This document shows, piece after piece, positions 7,216 through 25,144 of a DNA stretch of 64,000 nucleotides. The stretch lies in sequence record NC_105512.1; one strand, written 5' to 3'. The position numbers were made by a program, and so were the translations under genes. This DNA comes from Escherichia phage JLBYU43. The stretch's first letter is position 1; the number at the start of each line of letters is the position of its first letter. Below the pieces are notes generated by a model. That model was not told the DNA's origin. It saw nothing but the letters and a program-made list of their open reading frames with translations, and made no database searches.

Positions 7216-7429
7216 AAATGTTAGTCTTATTGACCTGAGTAAACTCAATGTAGAGTTTCAGGGGGTTTTAATGAAGCACTGGGAAACTGGCTATAAGGAT
7301 GGTGTTGAATCCTGTGCTACTATGCTAGAATTTATTGCTAATACCTTAGTGGAGAAAGGCAATAAAGAATTAGCTGAGCTGTTAGACAGTATTGGGCAAA
7401 ACTTCAGAGAGCAGGTGAAAAATGCGTAG
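7184..7429 (+). CDS. hypothetical protein (81 aa)
   Basis: RBS GAGGAG before ATG 7184. Confidence 0.5.
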   Translation: MAFSSQKLPSENVSLIDLSKLNVEFQGVLMKHWETGYKDGVESCATMLEFIANTLVEKGNKELAELLDSIGQNFREQVKNA

Positions 7430-8198
7430 ACTAATCATTGTTAGTGGTGCTGGTTTAAGTGTTGATAGTGGTATCCGTGCATTCCGTACAGATACTGCTA
7501 GTGGTAAAGCAATGTGGGACGAGTACGATCTAGAAGAGGTGTGTGATATTCATGCTTTTCGTGGCCAGTTCTACTGGAAAACCCACGAGTTCTACAACAA
7601 GCGTCGTCAGGAGTTGCGGACTGTTGAACCTAACATTGCGCACCTTCGTATTGGGGAATGGTTCCAGCGGTATCCAGAAGCGGTACTAAACATTACTACT
7701 AACGTAGATGACTTGCTGGAAAGAGCTGGTGTGCCGAAAAGTGAGGTTCTCCACGTTCATGGCTATTTACCGGAAGTTCGTATTAAGGAATTGCCAGACC
7801 GAAAAGAGTACATCCTAGATGTGGGCTATACTGCTATTGATCCTGATGAATTTTATTGGGCAAAGCCTAACGTTGTATTCTTTGGTGAAGCAGCCCCCGA
7901 ATATGCTCTGATGCATGCCACTTTTGATAGTCTTACAGCTAACGATATGGTTATCGTGGTTGGGTGTAGTAACCAAGTTATCAACTTCAACTGGGAACTT
8001 TTTCCTGCACTAGCTCGTGGTACTAAGATGATGGTTGTTAACCCAACTATTAACTACTTGGAACAATCCCTGTACGAAGAGCGTGGTGTTACTGTATGGC
8101 GTGCTGGGGCTGCCGAAGTTTTCGGTAACAAACACTTTATTGGCCAGGTAGAAGCTTTTATGGAAGGAACTATTTATGCCCCAGAAAAGCATGTGTGA
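7422..8198 (+). CDS. SIR2-family (sirtuin-like) NAD-binding protein lacking a zinc ribbon
   Basis: GAGLSVDSGIRAFR (GAGIS-ESGIP-FR motif), TTNVDDL (TQNID-like), VLHVHG catalytic His, PNVVFFGE; no CxxC pairs; RBS AGGTGA. Confidence 0.75.
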   Translation: MRRLIIVSGAGLSVDSGIRAFRTDTASGKAMWDEYDLEEVCDIHAFRGQFYWKTHEFYNKRRQELRTVEPNIAHLRIGEWFQRYPEAVLNITTNVDDLLERAGVPKSEVLHVHGYLPEVRIKELPDRKEYILDVGYTAIDPDEFYWAKPNVVFFGEAAPEYALMHATFDSLTANDMVIVVGCSNQVINFNWELFPALARGTKMMVVNPTINYLEQSLYEERGVTVWRAGAAEVFGNKHFIGQVEAFMEGTIYAPEKHV

Positions 8199-9457: not shown

Positions 9458-9853
9458 ATGGAACAAGTATTTTGGCGTCAGATAGATCCTAGTTTGGTAG
9501 AGCGTGCTGAGGGGCTCCTTGCACATTGGTTGGGGGTTGACAAGGTTAGTGTAACATTTCCGTTTACTTCTGTAACAGACCCTAGTGTAGGTGTATTTGT
9601 GGACGAAGATGAAGATGATGGTTGGGAAGCTGACTGGAATGAATTGTCCAGCATGGGCTTGATTGTTGCCATCAACTTCTCTATATTCCATCCACGTGGC
9701 TTAGCCATTACACGTGACCCCGAAACTGGTGAATCCCCTTATCTTTTGCAAGTAGAAGATGATATTTGGGAGTACACCGAAGATATTCTCGAAGAAGCTA
9801 AAGGTCAATTAAATCGCATTGGGATCTATGTTCCAGGCCTAAATGATGATTGA
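9458..9853 (+). CDS. hypothetical acidic protein, paralog B (131 aa)
   Basis: RBS GGAGG; paralog of 9020-9448. Confidence 0.6.
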   Translation: MEQVFWRQIDPSLVERAEGLLAHWLGVDKVSVTFPFTSVTDPSVGVFVDEDEDDGWEADWNELSSMGLIVAINFSIFHPRGLAITRDPETGESPYLLQVEDDIWEYTEDILEEAKGQLNRIGIYVPGLNDD

Positions 9854-9876
9854 TTTTCATTAGCCCAATCCTGATT

Positions 9877-9902
9877 ACCGAGTCATTTTGGCTCGGTTTT
9901 CT
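9877..9902 (+). terminator. Rho-independent terminator
   Basis: stem ACCGAG/CTCGGT then TTTTCTCTG. Confidence 0.5.
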
Positions 9903-9944
9903 CTGTGCTCAAAGACACTGATAGCACCTTCGTAAAAAATTTTG

Positions 9945-9973
9945 TTGCACGATGCTCAAAATCTTGGTATAAT
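9945..9973 (+). promoter_or_regulatory. promoter reading into a ~590 bp ORF-free region
   Basis: TTGCAC-17-TATAAT with TG immediately upstream; downstream ATTTATATTGAATTGAGAGAC box. Confidence 0.5.
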
Positions 9974-10566
9974 ATTTATATTGAATTGAGAGACATTAGT
10001 AAAAATTGATTTTGCTAATTTTTCTTAGTGAAGCTGACAATGGATTTACGGCGAGAGTGGTCGATGACCCGTAAATAGCTGCATAAGGTACGTTGCTAGA
10101 GCTTTATGAAAAAGTTTTTCTTGTTTACAATCCGCGATACGGAACAGTTAGGCTGCCCCATTAAGGGTTGTTTTAACTATTACTAGTGTTTATATTGCAT
10201 TAGTTAATCTTCAATTAAGTGATCTGTGTACCCTGAATTCGGAAAGGTAAATCCAAACCGTGCATATTTAGCTCGTTATATAGGCAGAGCTTTATATGGG
10301 GGTGCGAACGAAAAGAGCAGCGAATGGCGGCACGTACAGTAGTCACCTACCAATAGGATAGCGAGGACAAATAGAATCGGCTTAGCGGCCAATGACCTAG
10401 GTTCTATTCTGTATATGAGCGAAGAGAGCACAGCACTGAGATATGATAACTTATTCATATTGTTTGATGATAATTGATGTTTACGTAAATAGTAGTAATA
10501 GTTGTTCTATTCTTTCTGAATAGTCCTAAAGAAAAGATTTCGATTAATCAACACAGGAGTATTGTT
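9974..10566 (+). other. non-coding region: candidate structured RNA, long leader or replication origin
   Basis: no plausible ORF, local GC rise 10270-10440, inverted repeats ATTTACGG/CCGTAAAT and AATAGAA/TTCTATT. Confidence 0.3.
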
Positions 10567-13356
10567 GTGTTTTCTATCCTCCAAGGTCACGCCGGGTTTT
10601 CTCGTGATTTAGCAACAGGTATTTGGCGAGAAATCAAAGCGGAAGATTATACCTTTGCCAAACGATTCTCGAAAGAGCATCCAGAAGGTAAACCAGCTTC
10701 TATGCCCTTCAAATTTGATGTAATAGAAGAGCACGACCCACAAAGCCTTGCTGAAATGTTACCACTTATGAGACGTTTAACGTCTGACCCTCATATCGTT
10801 GTGGTACGAGGTCGATGTCTTGCACCTAAAAATAATGTGCGACGTAAGAAAGGTAACTTTAATGTATCCAACCCTAGCAATATTATTGCTATGGACGTGG
10901 ATGGTATCCTGGATACCGGTGGGTACGACAAGTTTAATCTTGTAGGTATGGCCCGTCACATTATTAAGATGTTGAATAGTATTAGTGAGGACATGTTTCC
11001 TCTTGATGCAGGGTTTATTGCTCATGCATCGTCTTCGGCTGGCCTAAAACCAGGTATCCGAATGCACTTAATGCTAGAATCTAACGTCAAGGTAACTCAA
11101 GGTCAGTTAAAGTTCTTATTTACGTCTATCAATGATAGTAGTAAGCAAAAATTCGGTTTTGATATTGCCGACTTAGCTTATTATTCATCTGTCCAGCTTC
11201 ACTATTTTGCCGACCCTTTATTTAGCGATGGTATTGTTGATCCGTTTAAAGCGGAGAGTAAGCCACGTCTGGTGTATGTTAAAGGTTCGAAAGTAAATTT
11301 GCCTAATAATCTGGTTGACTATGAAACAACTAGAGGGGAGTTTAAGGAAGAGTTTTATTCTTTACTTGATCAAATTAAAGGCAAAAAGATTGCTTCTGAT
11401 AAAGTAGAAGAAACCATCAGCGAATTGGAAGAAGCTGAGGATGGGGTGTACTTGCGTATTATCCCCAAACTATACCATAGAGCATTAGAGGATGGTGTTG
11501 ATTTCGCATGGCTAGAACGTGAGATTAAACCCGCTTTATCTGAATATATTGCAACTAAAGATAACAGTCGTAATATTCAAGATTACTTTAATAACGGTCG
11601 TAAGCAGGCTCTCAAAGCGTTTGTTAATAATTCTAAACGCGAGATTCCATTAAATCTGAAAGGTGTTCCTCTTAAGAAATTAGAAGTGGATTCTCCACCA
11701 GAAGTTCCATACCTGAAGATTAACATTGTGCCCCCAAAAGGGCATATAACATTTGTTAAGGCAAGTCTTGGTACTGGCAAAACTACGGCAGTAACTAAAT
11801 GGCTGGACGCAGGTGTTCTTCCTGGCAACTTTTTAGCAGTTACAAATACTAGAGCGCTGGTATCTTCAAACGCTAAGAAATTTAGCGCAGGACAATATGA
11901 TAAGTCTGTAGATATGCTCAACTTTAAACGTGGAGCTATTGATCGTATGTCCACAACTATTCACTCTTTGCATAAGTTCAAGAGTTTTATTGGTCAAATT
12001 GATGCAATCTTTATCGATGAATGTGATGCTGTAATGAATGACCTATTATTCGCCCCGGTTGTTAAACAGCGTCGTGAATGTATTCAAGTTCTACGTGACA
12101 TCCTCATGACAGCTAAAACTGTAATTCTATCAGATGGTGATATTAGTGCCGAAACTATTGAAGCATATGGTTCTCTAATTGATTTTGATAAACCAGTAGC
12201 ATTTTATAATCATCACCGTAAAATGCTGTCAAAAGCTCATGCTTATGAGTTCCCTGACGAATCCAGTATTTGGGTTGCACTTCAAACATCTCTAGAGATG
12301 GGTGAGAAGTCAATCCTAGTATCTGACTGTGGACCTGATGAATTAAATGAAAAGGGAATGGCATTACGTCGTAATACCGGTGCGTTAGTTAAAGAAATTC
12401 ACTCAAACTCTACGTCTGATGTAGATATCCGACGTATTCTGGATTATACAACTAATGAGCTAATTGATCAACAGATTGATTGTTTGTTATGTAGTCCATC
12501 TGTAACGAGTGGTGTTGACTTTAACTATTTTGATAACGTATTCGTAATCACTAGAACCTCAAACCAAGCGCCAAACATGCGTTTCCAAGCAATCAGGCGC
12601 GACCGTGGTGCTCAGAACATTTATTATTTTATTGATAAATCTACGAGTGGATTTTCTGCAGGTTCCGAGCAATATAATATTGACGAGGGTTGGATTGAGT
12701 TAGCCCAACAACTGTACGCACGTCGTCGTGAGCTGGAATCTAGAAACTATACCAGTACTTTGCGTTATTATCTTCTCGATCAAGGTGCAACTATTGATAT
12801 CTTCAGTGAAAGCTGGGGGACTATCGAAGGTGCAGGCAAAGAGTATACAGAAGAGCGAATCAAAGCCATTTTGTATTCAACTCCTGATTATTGTGCTCCA
12901 CGCCATGCAGATGCGTATGAAGCTAAACTACTTCTTGTTCGCTATTATCATCTTGAGTCTATTAAAGATGTAACAGTTGAGCATGTTGAGCAATATATCA
13001 AGGATAAACCTAATGATCGAGCTGCATTCTTCCATAAAATGCACGAGATGTTCTGGGAAGATATTAAGAAGTGTTCAAATGTCACTATCAAACCATTCAT
13101 AGAAGCTCTGAAAGGTAAGAAGAAAGATTTCTTCCTTAAAACAGGTCAGAGTGCTAACCCAAAATACGCCAGAATGTATCTTGGTATGATGGGTATTGGT
13201 AAGGATATGAACACGGAGAATATTGTAGACTGGTACAGAACCTATTGTAAAATCGAATGTATGCCAATCCCGTATAAGTTTATGACTGATGAGGAGAAAC
13301 ATATGCATGATGAAGCAATGGCAGAGCTAGGCGCTAGAAATGACAGTGAAGAATAA
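10567..13356 (+). CDS. large replication ATPase/helicase (929 aa), possible N-terminal primase-polymerase-like domain
   Basis: GTG start with RBS ACAGGAG; Walker A SLGTGKTT, Walker B IFIDECD; N-terminal IIAMDVDG and SSAG...HLML motifs. Confidence 0.55.
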   Translation: MFSILQGHAGFSRDLATGIWREIKAEDYTFAKRFSKEHPEGKPASMPFKFDVIEEHDPQSLAEMLPLMRRLTSDPHIVVVRGRCLAPKNNVRRKKGNFNVSNPSNIIAMDVDGILDTGGYDKFNLVGMARHIIKMLNSISEDMFPLDAGFIAHASSSAGLKPGIRMHLMLESNVKVTQGQLKFLFTSINDSSKQKFGFDIADLAYYSSVQLHYFADPLFSDGIVDPFKAESKPRLVYVKGSKVNLPNNLVDYETTRGEFKEEFYSLLDQIKGKKIASDKVEETISELEEAEDGVYLRIIPKLYHRALEDGVDFAWLEREIKPALSEYIATKDNSRNIQDYFNNGRKQALKAFVNNSKREIPLNLKGVPLKKLEVDSPPEVPYLKINIVPPKGHITFVKASLGTGKTTAVTKWLDAGVLPGNFLAVTNTRALVSSNAKKFSAGQYDKSVDMLNFKRGAIDRMSTTIHSLHKFKSFIGQIDAIFIDECDAVMNDLLFAPVVKQRRECIQVLRDILMTAKTVILSDGDISAETIEAYGSLIDFDKPVAFYNHHRKMLSKAHAYEFPDESSIWVALQTSLEMGEKSILVSDCGPDELNEKGMALRRNTGALVKEIHSNSTSDVDIRRILDYTTNELIDQQIDCLLCSPSVTSGVDFNYFDNVFVITRTSNQAPNMRFQAIRRDRGAQNIYYFIDKSTSGFSAGSEQYNIDEGWIELAQQLYARRRELESRNYTSTLRYYLLDQGATIDIFSESWGTIEGAGKEYTEERIKAILYSTPDYCAPRHADAYEAKLLLVRYYHLESIKDVTVEHVEQYIKDKPNDRAAFFHKMHEMFWEDIKKCSNVTIKPFIEALKGKKKDFFLKTGQSANPKYARMYLGMMGIGKDMNTENIVDWYRTYCKIECMPIPYKFMTDEEKHMHDEAMAELGARNDSEE

Positions 13357-13573
13357 AAAATGGGAAACAAGGAAGTTTCCAGTAAAAGAGCGTAAAGTTC
13401 CTGTTTACGACACTTCGGAAAAGCTATGTAGGGTGGTACCACACAGATTAGCTGGCATCCCTAACATATCCGAGTGGTTACTTAAACAACGGAAAACTAA
13501 CGTGTCTCTTCGCATCGGCTTTGAGTTAGATAAAGTCTATGCTGAACTTGCTTCTTTGCTCAAGGAACAATAA
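13340..13573 (+). CDS. hypothetical small protein (77 aa)
   Basis: ORF only, weak RBS, overlaps neighbours. Confidence 0.3.
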   Translation: MTVKNKKWETRKFPVKERKVPVYDTSEKLCRVVPHRLAGIPNISEWLLKQRKTNVSLRIGFELDKVYAELASLLKEQ

Positions 13574-14145
13574 TGTTTATAAGAATTCCCGAATTTCCTG
13601 ACTATGCAGTGAATGAAAATGGAGATGTATACTCTTTTCTCTCCAACAAATTTCTTGCTCCAGGTCAAAATACTGCGGGGTACTTACAAGTTAACTTAAT
13701 GAAAGATGGCTCCCCTATAAATGTGAGAGTGCATAGGCTAGTGGCTTATTGTTTTGGTCTACTTCCTGAGTTAGAATCAGAGTTGGTAGTAGACCATATA
13801 AATGATAATAAGTTAGATCCTAGATTAGTTAACCTACAGGTATTAACCCACAAAGCTAATGCAATAAAATTCCATAATAAAAACTGGAGAGAACATCCAG
13901 ATTTCTTAGCAGAGATTAAGAAATTAGAAAGTATGGGTATAACTAAAGCAGCTGCATCTTATAGGTGTAGGGCTATGTTTAAATATAATGTGGTTATTCC
14001 TTCCGGTGATACTCTAACCTTAGAGTTAATAGAATCTACATATCAGAAAACCAATTCTTGGAGAAAAACCGCGAGAGTACTTGGATTTAAAAGCGCTCCT
14101 GCCATTCTTTATAGATATAACAAGCTGAAAGCAGCTTCTTTATAA
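13573..14145 (+). CDS. HNH homing endonuclease (NUMOD4/HNH_3-like)
   Basis: HRLVA...VVDHINDNKLDPRLVNLQVLTHKAN; TAATG overlap. Confidence 0.7.
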   Translation: MFIRIPEFPDYAVNENGDVYSFLSNKFLAPGQNTAGYLQVNLMKDGSPINVRVHRLVAYCFGLLPELESELVVDHINDNKLDPRLVNLQVLTHKANAIKFHNKNWREHPDFLAEIKKLESMGITKAAASYRCRAMFKYNVVIPSGDTLTLELIESTYQKTNSWRKTARVLGFKSAPAILYRYNKLKAASL

Positions 14146-14211: not shown

Positions 14212-14916
14212 ATGGCTGGTTCTCGTAGAAAGAAACACATTCATGAAATCCCGGATGAAGTCTTTAAAAAGGTTATAGAGCATCTGGAGAACGGCGGTAC
14301 TAAGAAAGCAGCATGTGAAATGCTCGGCGTATCATCCAATCCAACTATGGAAAGGATGATTGAGGAATGGCAAGACCGCCAAATTCAAGTTGCCGAGATG
14401 AAGAAAAAGAAACGTGGCACACTCATTGAAGGCATTGAGTTAGCTAACGTTATTGAGCAGTATTTATCTGGTGATTCTTTTGAAGAAATTGCCGATCGTA
14501 ATTATCGTTCTGTAGCAATGGTTAAATCTGTTTTGGAACGCTATGGTGCTCTGCTTCGTTTGAACGATATTGTAGATCCATTGAATCCTCCAATTATTCC
14601 TGATGATGCTGTAGCAGAAGAATTTGAGGTTGGAGAACTAGTTTGGGTTCCTGGATACCAGTGTATTGGTGAAATCAAAAAAGCAATGGATAATCCTGTT
14701 GGTTGTTACCGTGTATGGCTTCTATCAGAAGGCAAACAACAGAACGTCCATTATATGAATTACGAGCTGGCTTCTGTTAAACATCTGGAAAAGCTAGGGG
14801 TTGATGTAAAATCTCTAGGGTATAAATGGACTCGTGAAGAAATTATTACGTTGATTAATGAAGCTGTTAAGGCTGCCCTGAAACTTGATAAAGAAAAAGG
14901 AAAACGCCGTGAGTAA
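14212..14916 (+). CDS. early protein downstream of PN25-like promoter (234 aa)
   Basis: RBS GAGAGGAG; N-terminus MAGSRRKKHIHE. Confidence 0.7.
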   Translation: MAGSRRKKHIHEIPDEVFKKVIEHLENGGTKKAACEMLGVSSNPTMERMIEEWQDRQIQVAEMKKKKRGTLIEGIELANVIEQYLSGDSFEEIADRNYRSVAMVKSVLERYGALLRLNDIVDPLNPPIIPDDAVAEEFEVGELVWVPGYQCIGEIKKAMDNPVGCYRVWLLSEGKQQNVHYMNYELASVKHLEKLGVDVKSLGYKWTREEIITLINEAVKAALKLDKEKGKRRE

Positions 14917-19172: not shown

Positions 19173-19205
19173 AAGGGGAGGGGGCTATGCTCCTTCCCCT
19201 TTTTG
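19173..19205 (+). terminator. Rho-independent terminator
   Basis: stem AAGGGGAGG/CCTTCCCCTT then TTTTTG; contains the track ATG 19187. Confidence 0.6.
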
Positions 19206-19237
19206 CATTTAGAAGGCACGAAAGCGTGCAAAGGAGA

Positions 19238-20710
19238 ATGACCTTGTTTAACGTGCAAGCTGTAGTGTTGAAGATGCTTCTAGCTTCTGAACAGAAGCAA
19301 ATAGCATTGGAAACATTCTCAAAACTGCATAAAGATCATTTTAATGACGCTTTCTCCTCAATTTACCAAGCCGTCCAGAATTATTATAAAAAATATAACA
19401 CAATGCCGTCCATTGACGCACTGATGCTTGAGGCTAATAGGAACGCCCGTCTTTCTCAAGCTCTAGTCGTCTTAGCTAACACTCAAATTCCAGAAGTGAG
19501 CATGGAACAGGCACTTGAAGTCCTAGAAGCAGAATATACACAGGATTTATTCCTGAAGCTTCTAGAAACAGACGTGCTTCAAGATTTAACAATGCTGGAT
19601 CAGGGAGAAATTCTCAACCGAGTTGCCTCCCTTCACTTAAAATTAGAAGAGAAAGTAACGAATACTGGAAAAGTATTCAACGCAGATAACATGCGTATTT
19701 TCCAGAGAGAAGAAGATACCAAACTGAACTTAATCGCTCTTGGTATTTGTAATGAGTTCGACGCTCAAATTGGTTTAGCTCGCACAGAAACGTTACTGCT
19801 TGGTGGTTGGCGTGGTACTGGTAAATCCATTATCTGTTCAAACATACAGGTTCAGCAATATTTGAATGGAGATATTGCTCCATACTTCTCAATTGAGATG
19901 AAAGAACATGAAGTATTTAGACGTAATCTAGCCATGTTAGCTGGTGTATCAGCATTAGCAATGCGTAATAACACTCTTGAAGGTGCTGCTCTGTTGAGAT
20001 TAGCCAGAACTAGGGCTAGGATGTTTAATGGTGGTGAAGAGCTTTTCGATAACTTCGTTAAGCAATACACTATGGCTAAAATGAGTGACTTCTATGATAT
20101 GGAAAGTAAACTCCTTGAAGGCTATGAGCTTCACACTCCTATGATCATCGTTTACGATCCTGAACTGTCTATTACGACTGTTGACGTAGAATTAAATAAA
20201 CTAGTTGCTAAATATGGTGATAAGGTTACTGTAGCTCTTCTAGACTATATTAACCAAACAAGACTTCCAGATTCAAAGACCATTGACATGTATGACTGGA
20301 AAGAACAGATGGTCGTTAGTTCATCTTTCAAATCTATCTGCCAGAAACATAACGTGGCTGGTGTAGCTCCTTACCAGATCGATCAAGATGGTAGAACACG
20401 TATGTCAAAGGGGATTCTTGATTCCGCAGACATGGCTGCTAATCTTAATGCTGCAAAAGCTGATAATGGTCAAGGTGCTATTATGTTTGACTTCGTTAAG
20501 ACTCGTTCTTCTGATAGCGTGAAGTTTATGCCTAAAATGAACTGGGAAACTCTGCGAATGGATAACACTACCAACCTAGCAATGGAAGATATATCTCAAA
20601 TGGAAGCTGAGTTCGTTATCCCTATTGAGAAGGATAAGCCGGCTCAACCTAAACGTGCTAAGAAAGACAAAACTGAAAATTCAACAGGTGAACAGGCCAG
20701 CGATATATGA
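19238..20710 (+). CDS. RecA-fold replicative helicase (DnaB-like)
   Basis: Walker A GWRGTGKS; RBS AAAGGAGA; start moved from 19187. Confidence 0.6.
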   Translation: MTLFNVQAVVLKMLLASEQKQIALETFSKLHKDHFNDAFSSIYQAVQNYYKKYNTMPSIDALMLEANRNARLSQALVVLANTQIPEVSMEQALEVLEAEYTQDLFLKLLETDVLQDLTMLDQGEILNRVASLHLKLEEKVTNTGKVFNADNMRIFQREEDTKLNLIALGICNEFDAQIGLARTETLLLGGWRGTGKSIICSNIQVQQYLNGDIAPYFSIEMKEHEVFRRNLAMLAGVSALAMRNNTLEGAALLRLARTRARMFNGGEELFDNFVKQYTMAKMSDFYDMESKLLEGYELHTPMIIVYDPELSITTVDVELNKLVAKYGDKVTVALLDYINQTRLPDSKTIDMYDWKEQMVVSSSFKSICQKHNVAGVAPYQIDQDGRTRMSKGILDSADMAANLNAAKADNGQGAIMFDFVKTRSSDSVKFMPKMNWETLRMDNTTNLAMEDISQMEAEFVIPIEKDKPAQPKRAKKDKTENSTGEQASDI

Positions 20711-21240
20711 TAACACAGGAAAGGCTAAAAGAGTTATTTGATTACTCCCCAGAAACTGGGGAGTTTACTAGAAAAGTATCTAGAGGCAATCAGAAAGCTG
20801 GGAGTATAGTAAATAGAAAAGACTCTAATGGCTATATAATTATTGGCATAGATGGCAAGGATTACAAAGCTCATCGTATGGCTTTTCTATTTATGGAGAA
20901 TACACTGCCTGAAAAAGTAGACCATGTAAACAGAATACCATTCGATAACAGATGGTGTAATCTAAGAGATGCCACAGCCCAGGAAAATAGTAGAAATAAA
21001 ACAGCATGTAGTAAATCTGGATACTTAGGAGTTGCTTGGGATAAGAAAAATCAAAAATGGGAAGTTAGAGTCAGGGATTATTTAGGAAATAAAAAATATT
21101 TCGGAAGATTTAACTATCTGGATTTACAATCAGCTGTTGAGATAGCTAATAAGGCCAGACTACAGTTACACGGAGAACGTGCTGTTATAGAGATTTTTGA
21201 TATATATAATTATCCTGCACTAGAGGAGCTAAACTCATGA
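20707..21240 (+). CDS. HNH homing endonuclease with AP2-like domain
   Basis: HRMAF...VDHVNR...NRWCNL; paralogs at 31086, 62111, 63411. Confidence 0.75.
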   Translation: MITQERLKELFDYSPETGEFTRKVSRGNQKAGSIVNRKDSNGYIIIGIDGKDYKAHRMAFLFMENTLPEKVDHVNRIPFDNRWCNLRDATAQENSRNKTACSKSGYLGVAWDKKNQKWEVRVRDYLGNKKYFGRFNYLDLQSAVEIANKARLQLHGERAVIEIFDIYNYPALEELNS

Positions 21241-22127
21241 GTAGAATAACAGAACTACTTGATCTGAAAGGCATCGAATATAAAGATACAGGTGGTGATA
21301 TTCTTATATGCTGTCTCAATCCAGATCACGATGATAAACACCCAAGTTTGCGTATTGATCCTGAAACAGGCATTATGCACTGCTTGAGTTGTGGCTTCGG
21401 TAAAGGTATACCGAGCATTTACCATTATTTTAATGAGACTCAGTACCGACAGTCTCCAAGACTATCGCAGGTACGTAAAAAGATTTCAGAGATTAGGAAT
21501 GGATCTACGAATCTTGCAATTCCTGAATCTGCTTACCTTTTCGAAGGTGATTTCCGAGGTATAAGTTCTAAGACCTTGAAGAAATATTTTGCTTTCCAAC
21601 ACCAAGCAGACTGGGAAGGCAGAATTGTATTTCCAATCACAGATGCTGTTGGACGTAATATCCTATTTTTGGGTCGTTCTATAAACAGTTCTGCCCCTCC
21701 TAAATACTTAGTAAAACCAAAACAAGTTTCACCACCGATTTTCCCTGTACGATATAATACTCCAGTTCTTATCTTAGTTGAGGGTATCTTTGATATGCTG
21801 AACCTAGAGGATAATGGTATAGACTATGCTTCTTGCTGCTTTGGTACACATCAGTTCACTTCAGATAACATTGCAGATAAGTTCAGTCCTTATATTATTG
21901 CTGGTGTAAAAGTTGTTGTTATCTTACTAGATAATGATGCTTCTGGTAATAAAGCTGCACAAGCGTTGGCCAAGTTAATTCGTACAAAAACGCGTTTAAC
22001 ACCTGTAATTGCTAACTTTCTCCTACCTGAAGGCAAAGATCCAGGTGATTTAAACAAAGATGAAATTGATATGTTAGCAAAACGTATTGAAATTTTAGTT
22101 GCTGAATCGCTTAAAGATTTGGTATAA
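21237..22127 (+). CDS. DnaG-like DNA primase
   Basis: CHC2 zinc finger C-x-H...C-x-x-C near N-terminus, TOPRIM-like region. Confidence 0.75.
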   Translation: MSRITELLDLKGIEYKDTGGDILICCLNPDHDDKHPSLRIDPETGIMHCLSCGFGKGIPSIYHYFNETQYRQSPRLSQVRKKISEIRNGSTNLAIPESAYLFEGDFRGISSKTLKKYFAFQHQADWEGRIVFPITDAVGRNILFLGRSINSSAPPKYLVKPKQVSPPIFPVRYNTPVLILVEGIFDMLNLEDNGIDYASCCFGTHQFTSDNIADKFSPYIIAGVKVVVILLDNDASGNKAAQALAKLIRTKTRLTPVIANFLLPEGKDPGDLNKDEIDMLAKRIEILVAESLKDLV

Positions 22128-22576: not shown

Positions 22577-25144
22577 TTGAAAATCGCAGTAGTTGATAAA
22601 GCTCTAAATAACACTCGTTATGATAAACATTTCCAGCTATACGGCGAGGAAGTTGATGTATTCCATATGTGTAACGAGAAGTTATCTGGTCGTTTGCTTA
22701 AAAAGCACATTACTATTGGAACACCAGAAAACCCATTTGATCCGAATGATTATGATTTTGTTATACTAGTAGGTGCTGAACCTTTCCTGTATTTCGCAGG
22801 TAAGAAAGGCATTGGTGACTATACTGGTAAACGTGTAGAGTATAATGGATATGCTAACTGGATTGCGAGTATCAGCCCAGCCCAGTTACACTTTAAGCCC
22901 GAAATGAAACCAGTTTTTGATGCAACAGTAGATAATATCCACGATATTATCAATGGTCGTGAGAAGATTGCAAAAGCTGGTGATTACCGCCCTATTACTG
23001 ACCCTGATGAGGCAGAAGAATATATCAAGATGGTGTATAATATGGTTATCGGACCTGTAGCATTCGACTCCGAAACCTCAGCACTATACTGTCGAGATGG
23101 TTATCTGCTTGGTGTTTCTATGTCTCACCAAGAGTATCAGGGTGTGTATATCGATTCTGATTGTCTCACAGAGGTTGCAGTATATTATCTCCAGAAAATT
23201 CTGGATAGTGAAAACCACACTATTGTTTTTCACAACCTGAAGTTTGATATGCACTTTTATAAGTACCATCTGGGACTTACTTTTGATAAAGCACATAAAG
23301 AACGCAGGCTTCATGATACTATGTTGCAGCATTATGTTCTAGATGAGCGTCGTGGTACTCATGGCTTGAAATCTCTAGCAATGAAGTATACCGATATGGG
23401 TGACTATGACTTTGAACTAGATAAGTTCAAGGAGGATTACTACAAAGCACATAAAATCAAGAAAGAAGATTTCACTTATGATTTAATTCCGTTTGATATT
23501 ATGTGGCCTTACGCTGCAAAAGATACCGATGCCACCATACGTTTGCACAACTTCTTCTTACCAAAAATTGAGAAGAATGAAAAACTTTGCAGTCTGTATT
23601 ATGATGTTCTAATGCCTGGTTGTGTATTCCTCCAGCGTGTTGAGGATCGTGGTGTACCAATTTCTATTGATCGCCTGAAAGAAGCACAGTACCAGTTAAC
23701 TCATAATCTGAATAAAGCTCGTGAAAAGCTGTATACTTACCCAGAAGTCGTTCAGCTAGAGAAAGATCAGAACGAAGCGTTTAACCCAAACTCTGTTAAA
23801 CAACTCCGTGTTCTTCTGTTTGATTATGTTGGGTTAACTCCAACAGGTAAATTGACAGATACTGGAGCGGACTCTACAGATGCAGAAGCTCTGAACGAAC
23901 TGTCTACGCAGCATCCAATTGCTAAAACTCTGCTAGAGATTCGTAAGCTGACTAAGCTGATCTCTACTTACGTTGAGAAGATTCTTCTGAGCATTGATGC
24001 TGATGGTTGCATTCGTACTGGCTTCCACGAACACATGACTACTTCTGGTCGTCTGAGTTCTTCTGGTAAACTGAACCTGCAACAGTTACCTCGTGATGAA
24101 TCTATTATCAAGGGTTGTGTAGTAGCTCCTCCCGGGTATCGTGTAATCGCATGGGACTTAACAACTGCGGAAGTTTATTATGCTGCTGTTCTATCTGGTG
24201 ATAGAAATATGCAACAAGTATTTATCAACATGAGAAATGAACCAGATAAATACCCTGACTTCCACTCTAACATCGCACACATGGTATTTAAGCTCCAATG
24301 CGAACCTCGTGATGTTAAAAAGTTATTCCCAGCCCTGCGTCAAGCAGCTAAAGCAATCACTTTTGGTATTTTGTATGGTTCTGGCCCGGCTAAAGTAGCT
24401 CATTCTGTTAATGAGGCTCTTTTGGAACAAGCTGCTAAGACAGGCGAACCGTTTGTAGAGTGTACTGTTGCAGATGCTAAAGAGTACATTGAAACTTACT
24501 TCGGCCAGTTCCCGCAGCTTAAGCGTTGGATTGATAAGTGCCACGATCAGATCAAGAATCATGGATTTATCTATAGTCACTTTGGTCGTAAACGTCGTCT
24601 GCATAATATCCACTCTGAAGACCGTGGTGTTCAGGGTGAAGAAATCCGTTCTGGATTTAACGCAATCATTCAGTCTGCTTCTTCTGATAGTCTCCTTTTA
24701 GGTGCTGTAGATGCAGATAATGAGATCATTTCTCTTGGCCTAGAACAAGAGATGAAGATTGTTATGCTGGTTCACGACTCAGTAGTTGCTATTGTTCGTG
24801 AGGATTTGATCGACCAATACAATGAAATCCTGATTCGTAATATCCAAAAAGACCGTGGTATCAGTATTCCTGGCTGTCCGATTGGTATTGATTCTGATTC
24901 TGAAGCTGGAGGTTCTCGTGACTACTCTTGTGGTAAGATGAAGAAGCAGCACCCATCAATCGCTTGTATTGATGATGATGAATATACTCGTTATGTCAAG
25001 GGTGTATTACTTGATGCAGAATTCGAGTATAAGAAATTAGCTGCAATGGATAAAGAGCATCCAGATCATAGCAAATACAAGGATGATAAGTTTATTGCTG
25101 TATGTAAAGATTTGGATAATGTGAGAAGGATTCTCGGTGCTTGA
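22577..25144 (+). CDS. family A DNA polymerase with 3'-5' exonuclease (T5-type, 855 aa)
   Basis: TTG start with RBS AAGAGGAGA; exo and pol motifs; N-terminus MKIAVVDKALNN as remembered for T5 pol. Confidence 0.95.
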   Translation: MKIAVVDKALNNTRYDKHFQLYGEEVDVFHMCNEKLSGRLLKKHITIGTPENPFDPNDYDFVILVGAEPFLYFAGKKGIGDYTGKRVEYNGYANWIASISPAQLHFKPEMKPVFDATVDNIHDIINGREKIAKAGDYRPITDPDEAEEYIKMVYNMVIGPVAFDSETSALYCRDGYLLGVSMSHQEYQGVYIDSDCLTEVAVYYLQKILDSENHTIVFHNLKFDMHFYKYHLGLTFDKAHKERRLHDTMLQHYVLDERRGTHGLKSLAMKYTDMGDYDFELDKFKEDYYKAHKIKKEDFTYDLIPFDIMWPYAAKDTDATIRLHNFFLPKIEKNEKLCSLYYDVLMPGCVFLQRVEDRGVPISIDRLKEAQYQLTHNLNKAREKLYTYPEVVQLEKDQNEAFNPNSVKQLRVLLFDYVGLTPTGKLTDTGADSTDAEALNELSTQHPIAKTLLEIRKLTKLISTYVEKILLSIDADGCIRTGFHEHMTTSGRLSSSGKLNLQQLPRDESIIKGCVVAPPGYRVIAWDLTTAEVYYAAVLSGDRNMQQVFINMRNEPDKYPDFHSNIAHMVFKLQCEPRDVKKLFPALRQAAKAITFGILYGSGPAKVAHSVNEALLEQAAKTGEPFVECTVADAKEYIETYFGQFPQLKRWIDKCHDQIKNHGFIYSHFGRKRRLHNIHSEDRGVQGEEIRSGFNAIIQSASSDSLLLGAVDADNEIISLGLEQEMKIVMLVHDSVVAIVREDLIDQYNEILIRNIQKDRGISIPGCPIGIDSDSEAGGSRDYSCGKMKKQHPSIACIDDDEYTRYVKGVLLDAEFEYKKLAAMDKEHPDHSKYKDDKFIAVCKDLDNVRRILGA

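Follow-up and report, generated by a model that had tools for sequence, protein, structure and literature searches.

Among model phages T5 is a classic, and T5-like phages find wide use in phage therapy and food safety. To our knowledge, neither the initiation of T5 replication nor the T5 origin has so far been defined in molecular terms. The locus described here lies in a window of 64,000 nucleotides of Escherichia phage JLBYU43 (NC_105512.1), the whole stretch of DNA that was analysed. It raises the question whether a replication protein of such a phage carries a primase in front of its helicase, and whether it acts at the non-coding region beside its own gene. The gene and its start are as follows.

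10555 to 10559, plus strand: AGGAG, the ribosome-binding site, with a spacing of 7 nt to the GTG, read from the sequence
10567 to 13356, plus strand: gene of a D2-type replication protein of 929 aa, GTG start, stop codon included, from the open reading frame list

The product of 10567–13356 is the ortholog of the phage T5 D2 helicase, which has already been characterised. The gene shows 96% nucleotide identity to T5-like phages (523 records), its protein matches PHROG 3712 over the full length, and the N-terminal 390 residues are 99% identical to an IMG/VR contig. Several GenBank records of D2 carry the gene name 'DNA primase' or 'DNA primase C', and some start it 135 nt downstream of the GTG. 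A first, sequence-only reading had placed a 929-residue frame with a GTG start at 10567 behind a good ribosome-binding site, which agrees with the frame list and with AGGAG at 10555–10559, kept as (C/T/A)AGGAG in relatives. Several lines of evidence support this GTG: the start position is conserved as GTG, ATG or TTG in Providencia, Klebsiella and Erwinia phages; residues 1–45 are conserved in the homologue alignment and form confident β-strands in the predicted model; and Wong et al. 2013 expressed active T5 D2 from the same GTG (PMC3632103). T5 D2 also has the same K405 and PF02399 region. The T5 gene lies in the same place, upstream of the D2/D3/ligase/D5/DnaB-like/primase/polymerase block, and nothing essential differs.

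The C-terminal two-thirds of the protein contain the motor.

11734 to 12666, plus strand: UL9-like superfamily 2 helicase core with two RecA-like lobes, aa ~390–700
11761 to 11784, plus strand: Walker A, ASLGTGKT (K405), aa 399–406
12010 to 12027, plus strand: Walker B, FIDECD, aa 482–487
12691 to 13329, plus strand: all-helical C-terminal domain, aa 709–921, from the full-length AF2 model (pLDDT about 90)

Helicase motifs had been read in this part, and they are indeed found there: Walker A (GTGKTT, aa 402–407) and Walker B (aa 482–487) occur together with arginine-finger motifs, and Pfam PF02399 (Herpes_ori_bp) matches above its curated cut-off. In a set of 62 homologues reaching down to 31% identity, G402, T403, G404, K405 and T406 are invariant, as are F482, D484, E485 and D487 of Walker B, and R720, E724, R779 and H780 of the C-terminal domain are conserved. 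The helicase role proposed at first holds; the match to the known T5 D2 helicase had been missed. By analogy with this near-identical ortholog, we infer that the JLBYU43 protein unwinds DNA in an ATP-dependent manner. The ATPase of T5 D2 is stimulated by DNA, and the enzyme unwinds DNA in either polarity, 3'–5' being dominant; both its ATPase and helicase activities are abolished by K405E (PMC3632103).

The helicase nearest to that of D2 is UL9, the herpes simplex virus initiator (PF02399; PDB 9hgi/9hgj). Its alignment to D2 extends over 418 residues, past both RecA lobes and about 100 residues beyond generic helicases. UL9 is reported to be unidirectional (3'–5') and to bind specific origin boxes, whereas T5 D2 is bipolar (PMC3632103). 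The N-terminal part of UL9 matched no archaeo-eukaryotic primase (AEP) in the searches made here; in D2, by contrast, an AEP-like domain and then a helical bundle precede the helicase core, which starts near residue 390. The NCBIfam model NF042913 CyRepA1, a cyanobacterial plasmid replication protein, aligns with aa 392–708 (model positions 2–317 of 595, E 6.5e-35). D2 is not a member of this family, since it scores 121.1 bits, short of the 200 set as curated cut-off, and the model covers the helicase part only.

We then considered what precedes the motor.

10567 to 11316, plus strand: divergent AEP-like alpha/beta domain, aa 1–250
11347 to 11634, plus strand: helical bundle separating the AEP-like domain from the helicase, aa 261–356

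Structure prediction, named as a check when a primase-like N-terminus was first suspected, gave an AEP-like fold for the N-terminal third. The confident AlphaFold model of the front domain (pLDDT 89.6) resembles AEP primases among alpha/beta folds, with modest scores. Among the best 50 PDB matches returned by Foldseek, 47 came from eight different AEP proteins, the top one being LigD (E 7.9e-4, probability 0.99). The fold matches comprise human PrimPol, poxvirus D5/E5, LigD, pRN1, S-2L PrimPol, Prim-PolC and the archaeal NHEJ polymerase. The family sharing this front domain amounts to 96 clusters at 50% identity. Relatives that share only the front domain carry it N-terminal to PriCT-2, D5_N, DUF5906/Pox_D5 or VapE-like helicases.

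Three candidate AEP motifs were located within this domain.

10882 to 10905, plus strand: IIAMDVDG, candidate AEP motif I (D110, D112), aa 106–113, at the end of β-strand 104–114
11026 to 11076, plus strand: ASSSAGLKPGIRMHLML, candidate AEP motif II (S155, S157, G159, H167), aa 154–170
11161 to 11223, plus strand: DIADLAYYSSVQLHYFADPLF, candidate AEP motif III (D202), aa 199–219, with conserved Y/F206, Q210 and P217

We aligned 44 diverse relatives sharing 22–56% identity with the D2 query. D110 and D112 are present in all 44, and are also invariant in the 62 homologues. IIAMDVDG fits the motif I pattern hhhhDxD/E, and the two residues are equated with AEP motif I from their order and context. 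The motif II candidate, SSSAGLKPGIRMH, combines small residues with a histidine (sxH) and in the model runs from a loop into strand 164–176; it includes the SSAG...HLML segment (aa 156–170) noted previously. S155 is found in 40 of the 44 sequences (Thr in four), S157 in 40 and G159 in 41, while H167 is found in 38 and replaced by Arg in the other six, a substitution that speaks against the AEP-primase reading. In the motif III candidate (third catalytic Asp, pattern hD), D202 and P217 are strictly conserved (44/44 each), Y/F206 nearly so (42/44) and Q210 less (33/44). The residues first singled out by eye, DVD and the His of HLML, thus coincide with conserved ones in this alignment, and the key residues of all four motifs named in the sequence-only reading are invariant in the 62 homologues. 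Candidate motifs I–III follow the AEP order and occupy the expected strand and loop context in the model. This order and context, the three aspartates conserved in 44/44 and the nearly invariant Ser/Gly/His together argue for an AEP active site.

Since all fold scores are modest, the AEP resemblance could be due to chance, the domain having another fold such as that of HUH rolling-circle Rep endonucleases, which share an RRM-like core. AAV2 Rep68 was weakly matched in Foldseek (probability 0.41–0.51) and sequence methods are silent, as such a reading would have it. Eight AEP proteins nevertheless rank above Rep in two independent fold-search methods, and the partner domains of the family are those of primases. 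The motifs led us to reject the HUH fold: there is no His-hydrophobic-His, H167 being followed by L-M-L, and no invariant Tyr, position 206 being Y in 26 sequences and F in 16. We consider a chance resemblance very improbable.

Sequence-profile methods, in contrast to the fold, revealed no AEP similarity. HMM searches had been proposed at the outset to verify the primase-like N-terminus, and on this point it found no confirmation in Pfam, NCBIfam, PDB profiles, hhalign or HMMER; the sequence-only reading had itself named this outcome as one that would count against it. Residues 1–390 drew no match in Pfam or NCBIfam, and local phmmer and hmmsearch runs with the front domain gave no AEP signal. 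The profile of the front-domain family had no match among PDB sequences at E up to 10, and hhalign of the family against the AEP domain of S-2L PrimPol returned a probability of 0.3%. At E up to 10, Pfam searches with the 44 members of the family yielded only scattered chance matches, including one AEP-TOTE at E 0.28. Word-indexed homologue searches returned two matches for the N-terminal 390 residues and ten for the family profile; none of them carries Pfam domains, so they provide no bridge from D2 to known AEPs. The profile test is however of low power, since the AEP domain of S-2L PrimPol, although proven, likewise escapes Pfam. The primase-like N-terminus first suspected from the letters is thus backed by fold, conservation and the architecture of distant relatives, but not by any sequence-profile similarity. 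We infer from the model that residues 1–250 form a divergent AEP domain, whose link to AEPs is visible at the fold level only.

Conservation also bears on whether such a domain would be active. It might be a catalytically dead AEP relic that binds DNA or a partner, for example in origin recognition or polymerase recruitment, D2 being then just a helicase or initiator. We found no AEP, PrimPol or primase activity in the literature on T5-like phages, and Wong et al. 2013 report neither primase nor polymerase activity for T5 D2. The domain is too divergent for AEP profiles, and the K405E mutant of T5 D2 retains DNA binding (PMC3632103), which implies that DNA is also bound elsewhere in the protein. 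Against this, the three acidic residues are kept in all 44 relatives despite differing helicase types and an identity to the query as low as 22%, and the Ser/Gly/His of motif II are nearly invariant. Dead enzymes usually lose their catalytic residues. A dead relic therefore appears distinctly unlikely.

The AEP-fold assignment of aa 1–250 is new with respect to the 2013 study of T5 D2. Wong, Sayers and Sanders (NAR 2013) predicted there only coiled coils and an HTH at aa 308–329, which falls inside the helical bundle (PMC3632103). Fusions of All3500-family AEPs to UL9-like superfamily 2 helicases are a published precedent (Kazlauskas et al. 2018, PMC5862659). D2 has the same domain order, AEP, helical module and helicase, as these fusions, poxvirus D5/E5, pRN1 ORF904 and S-2L PrimPol. 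It differs from the AEP-helicase fusion replicases in that none of their tested sequence profiles matched its front domain, and in the unusually long spacing of its motif II, S-S-S-A-G-x-K-P-G-x-R-x-H. No Zn-binding or PriCT signature was found when searched for in D2, and PriCT-2 (PF08707) was rejected at the sequence level as an identity for the helical bundle (hhalign probability <1%, aa 255–390 being compared).

Taken together, these data lead us to propose, with a probability of roughly 70%, that D2 is a single-chain primase-helicase of the T5 type, with an AEP-like front and a UL9-like superfamily 2 motor. In this enzyme the catalytic metals would be bound by D110, D112 and D202, and the incoming nucleotide by the SSSAG loop together with H167. 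The AEP-like domain would prime the single-stranded DNA exposed by the attached helicase. The helical bundle (aa 261–356), placed like PriCT/helix-bundle modules of other AEP primases, may bind the initiating nucleotide or else the template. From D2, the primer would be handed to the T5 family A polymerase (22577–25144). A DnaG-like primase and a DnaB-like helicase had been reported elsewhere in the genome, and both are present, as a DnaG/Toprim primase at 21237–22127 and a DnaB-like helicase at 19187–20710; this separate pair would serve the moving fork. It is not obvious why the phage would need a second primase beside its DnaG-type one, which speaks against the AEP-primase reading. If the AEP primase is active, the only characterised 'initiator helicase' of T5 would really be a primase-helicase, and T5-like phages would combine priming of the bacterial type (DnaG) with that of the archaeo-eukaryotic type. 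The front domain would also mark a broad AEP family, the 96 clusters mentioned above, that current domain databases miss.

The dedicated DnaG/DnaB pair would equally suit an AEP-derived, PrimPol-like polymerase or re-priming enzyme that travels with the bipolar helicase and works in repair or restart, for instance where forks stall or where T5 DNA is naturally interrupted in one strand, and that plays no part at an origin. The best structural neighbours of the front domain include human PrimPol, the LigD polymerase domain, Prim-PolC and the archaeal NHEJ polymerase; the bipolar D2 helicase, active in a low oligomeric state (PMC3632103), resembles repair helicases; and origin-like features are absent beside the gene. 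Initiation nevertheless fits better with the amber mutants assigned to D2, in which no net DNA is made (PMC3632103). Moreover, among helicases the initiator UL9 comes closest, and the distant relatives have the architecture of replicative primase-helicases from mobile elements (PriCT-2, D5-like, VapE-like). We thus regard a pure repair enzyme as unlikely.

Action of the protein at the adjacent non-coding region, as first supposed, was not borne out. An iteron array is absent from this region, whose repeats are weak and occur in two copies only, and no AT-rich stretch stands out clearly as an unwinding element; no repeated boxes were found near the gene. A promoter-like site and a structured, RNA-like leader are found there instead.

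9877 to 9903, plus strand: intrinsic terminator of the preceding gene (ACCGAGTCATTTTGGCTCGGT followed by a T-run), from a terminator scan
9945 to 9973, plus strand: promoter-like site TTGCAC-17 nt-TATAAT, read from the sequence and conserved in T5-like phages
10136 to 10504, plus strand: conserved structured element of ~370 nt in the D2 leader, from RNAalifold on 29 distinct sequences
10136–10162, plus strand: leader helix H1 (RNAalifold)
10174–10183/10495–10504, plus strand: leader helix H2 (RNAalifold)
10219–10228/10429–10436, plus strand: leader helix H3 (RNAalifold)
10371–10407, plus strand: leader H5/H6 hairpin, whose tip is the invariant GCTTAGCGGC (10380–10389)

In the structured element, 26 of the 39 pairs show compensatory changes, and pairing reaches 94.8% compared with 30–50% in controls. 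The G-U bias of the structure points to the sense strand. A covariance model matched 10364–10481 with 91.9 bits, as a single copy in the window. In five representative phages, no Rfam 15 family matched the element with an E of 1 or less, and no tRNA or tmRNA was found in the leader. Like other large structured RNAs, such as long mRNA leaders and large phage-associated non-coding RNAs, the ~370-nt element has long-range helices, conserved loops and variable stems; it differs from those in Rfam in that no family there matches it. With its unusually clean covariation, it is a candidate new RNA motif. It probably regulates the expression of D2 and would provide a handle on the control of this initiator gene. 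A more speculative proposal, which we hold to be rather unlikely, is that T5-like phages have in the D2 locus an initiation module complete in itself, made of an AEP primase-helicase of an unclassified family and this undescribed ~370-nt leader RNA. The latter would then be an autoregulatory binding site for D2 or a transcript resembling ColE1 RNA II, serving as origin or pre-primer. If so, the locus would mark the T5 replication origin.

The site at 9945–9973 would drive both the leader and D2. It was missed by a simple promoter scan because only 3 of the 6 positions of its −35 hexamer match. Klebsiella, Erwinia and Providencia phages have an equivalent TTGCAA/TTGCCA-N17-TATAAT, followed by ATATTCAT. 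The single Rfam match, Hrs1 (E 0.15, minus strand, 9812–9904), overlaps the terminator and was rejected as a chance match. The ACCGAGTCATTTTGGCTCGGT terminator itself is near-identical in five phages, with one substitution in oselot.

The window comes from a T5-like phage (Demerecviridae). Its 929-aa replication gene matches 523 phage records, with 96% nucleotide identity to Escherichia phage slur09, and its product covers PHROG 3712 end to end. The product is variously recorded as 'replication origin binding protein', 'DEAD-like helicase', '5'-3' and 3'-5' helicase', 'DNA primase C' or 'hypothetical'. Its T5 ortholog is the D2 protein of Wong, Sayers and Sanders (PMC3632103), a ssDNA-stimulated ATPase and bipolar helicase with stronger 3'-5' polarity, which works in a low oligomeric state and is inactivated by K405E. 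The same authors proposed an initiator role from its similarity to UL9 and RepA and from the lack of net DNA in amber mutants (PMC3632103). Public records conflict on the name: some genomes give 'D2 protein' to a 234-aa ORF (14212-14916, +) with a weak HTH_28 match, whereas D2 in Wong et al. is the 929-aa helicase (10567-13356). Because of this conflict, the old genetics of D2 amber mutants without DNA synthesis may not point unambiguously to the helicase.

The D2 gene and its neighbours
7422-8198 (+), SIR2-family (NAD-dependent deacetylase-like) gene, so annotated in relatives
10555-10559 (+), AGGAG ribosome-binding site, 7 bases 5' of the D2 GTG
10567..13356 (+), D2 ORF, 929 aa, GTG start
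13573-14145 (+), HNH_3 endonuclease ORF
19187-20710, DnaB-like helicase
20707-21240 (+), HNH_3 endonuclease ORF
21237-22127, DnaG/Toprim primase
22577-25144, family A polymerase

The GTG-initiated ORF and its ribosome-binding site are present as the sequence-only reading had claimed, and the DnaG-like primase and DnaB-like helicase that it mentioned were both located as genes separate from D2. The start position is kept as GTG, ATG or TTG in Providencia, Klebsiella and Erwinia phages, residues 1-45 are conserved among 62 aligned full-length homologues and form confident β-strands in the predicted model, and active T5 D2 was produced from the same start (PMC3632103). The GTG start is thus trustworthy. 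Some GenBank records use an internal ATG 135 nt downstream, for example that of phage vB_EcoD-Elw (locus L001, 6136-8790); such a start would truncate the AEP-like (archaeo-eukaryotic primase) domain, removing the 45 conserved residues and its first β-strands. The two HNH_3 ORFs lie among the replication genes. The first separates the D2 gene from the next conserved gene and is probably a mobile homing endonuclease, since it is missing there in vB_EcoD-Elw. The SIR2-family gene precedes the replication module by a few genes.

The full-length D2 model comprises an α/β domain (aa 1-250), a helical bundle (aa 261-356), two RecA-like lobes (aa ~390-700) and an all-helical domain (aa 709-921). Pfam PF02399 (Herpes_ori_bp) matches aa 389-533 with 30.4 bits (cut-off 20), the sole significant PDB sequence match is UL9, and the NCBIfam model CyRepA1 matches aa 392-708 below its cut-off, all in agreement with the helicase assignment of the T5 D2 paper. 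The predicted Walker A (GTGKTT) and Walker B (FIDECD) motifs were found at aa 402-407 and 482-487; G402-T406 and F482/D484/E485/D487 are invariant in the 62 homologues, down to 31% identity.

The N-terminal third was said to contain IIAMDVDG and SSAG...HLML, reminiscent of AEP motifs I and II. Both motifs are present (aa 106-113 and 156-170), and D110, D112 (candidate motif I), S155, S157, H167 (II) and D202 (III) are among the residues invariant in the same 62 homologues. Pfam, NCBIfam and PDB sequence searches gave no match for aa 1-400, whereas an AEP fold holds for the modelled domain, by structure only. An unrelated fold, on whose side the empty searches would count, is given hardly any weight.

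HMMER, run exhaustively over 1.84 billion representative proteins, recovered 96 relatives of the N-terminal domain, about 35 of them D2-like proteins or their fragments. The others (E 1e-8 to 1e-3) vary in length and resemble D2 over aa ~30-255 only, with the same signature as D2 in their consensus, RR..F..DxD..SSSAGxKPGxRxHLWFWL..D..VQxHYTAxPxF..DP..R. The domain could be an inactive AEP remnant with a binding function, which we regard as quite improbable; in the trimmed family alignment (44 sequences, 22-56% identity to the query), D110, D112, D202 and P217 occur in 44/44, S155 and S157 in 40/44, G159 in 41/44 and H167 in 38/44. Arginine replaces H167 in 6 of the 44 relatives, which keep the three aspartates and may form a sub-family with altered nucleotide handling.

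None of the 44 members is covered by a Pfam model over this domain. The domain that follows it in relatives is VapE-like (14/59), a DUF5906/D5-type SF3 helicase (13) or PriCT-2 (5), and also D5_N or Pox_D5. These partners are diagnostic: relative P0119 has the classic AEP primase-helicase order, with a D2-N-like domain (16-248) in the AEP slot, then PriCT-2 (246-323), D5_N (414-567), DUF5906 (599-711) and Pox_D5 (775-862). With such partners on record, a PrimPol-like role of the D2 domain in repair or re-priming is unlikely. We file the domain as an AEP family outside curated domain libraries. In the PrimPol of cyanophage S-2L (locus L002, 20825-23038), Pfam-A detects only the VapE-like domain and misses the crystallographically proven AEP domain, so curated AEP models are blind to some phage AEP families.

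The most likely reading, with a probability of about 0.7, is that D2 is a primase-helicase. Its UL9-type motor would open up single-stranded DNA, an activity demonstrated for T5 D2; the AEP domain would prime on the exposed strand, the primer would be handed to the T5 polymerase, and the DnaB-like/DnaG-like pair would serve fork progression. A literature search found no AEP domain or primase activity assigned to T5 D2 or T5-like phages. AEP domains joined to UL9-like SF2 helicases are known from the All3500 family (Kazlauskas et al. 2018, PMC5862659), the helicase activity is published and 'DNA primase' stands in a few database records; we thus file D2 with the known AEP-helicase fusions.

The 700 bp upstream of D2 (9857-10566) contain the most original by-product of this analysis, a structured leader.

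The region upstream of D2
9877-9903, terminator of the preceding gene
9945-9973, conserved promoter TTGCAC-17-TATAAT
~10024-10120, 97-nt block, present or absent between phages
10136-10504 (+), conserved structured leader element of ~370 nt, downstream of the promoter, with strong covariation support
10136-10162, helix H1
10174-10183/10495-10504, helix H2
10219-10228/10429-10436, helix H3
10371-10407, helices H5/H6
10380-10389, hairpin tip GCTTAGCGGC, invariant 10-mer
10276-10458 (-), 60-aa ORF wholly within the leader

The proposal that D2 acts at this adjacent region found no support: no iteron array was seen in 9857-10566, which holds the terminator, the promoter and the structured element. 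A gap of 600-700 nt is kept upstream of the D2 homologue in Klebsiella, Erwinia and Providencia phages; its sequence is almost wholly diverged except for islands such as GCTTAGCGGC. The 97-nt block occurs in the window and HildyBeyeler, is lacking in T5_ev219 and saus47N, and is mostly missing in oselot, where TTTTGCTAA repeats annotated as repeat_region take its place.

We recorded the leader in the window and at relatives' loci L003-L009, L011-L040 and L043-L046, and collected 57 further loci from IMG/VR. At loci that match the D2 N-terminal region with 58% identity or more, GCTTAGCGGC is exact in all but three. The 29 distinct leaders form six lineages, 36-59% identical to one another, for which RNAalifold predicted a 5' hairpin, a hairpin with GCTTAGCGGC at its tip and two long-range helices, one of which forms the closing stem. 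In a controlled count over 39 pairs, 94.8% of cells were paired against 29.5-49.6% with partners slid, compensatory changes affected 26 pairs against 6-11, and the covariation score was 0.378 against at most 0.11; none of 500 shuffles matched the structure on any of five measures. G-U accounts for 15.5% of cells and A-C for 0.6%, and pairing would drop to 80% on the opposite strand. This assigns the structure to the sense strand and points to RNA.

With a covariance model of its core, the element was detected once in the window (10364-10481, 91.9 bits). The same roughly calibrated model gave only a weak score to the version in Pectobacterium phage My1 (19.8 bits, E 0.063), whose hairpin tip, ACUUAGCGGU, carries a compensatory change in a pair fixed everywhere else. 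The element occurs in enterobacterial T5-like phages; the model gave no match in Vibrio-type relatives, and no Rfam family, tRNA or tmRNA matched the element. Its simplest reading is a regulatory leader of the D2 mRNA, an origin role being speculation.

The covariation seen in this stretch and its existence in two divergent sequence versions make it most likely that the minus-strand 60-aa ORF is spurious. Among close T5 relatives, the leader interior (~10186-10485) exists in two very different versions, one in the window, T5_ev219 and oselot, the other in HildyBeyeler and saus47N. Their helices are the same, suggesting that sequence was replaced by recombination while the structure stayed under constraint.
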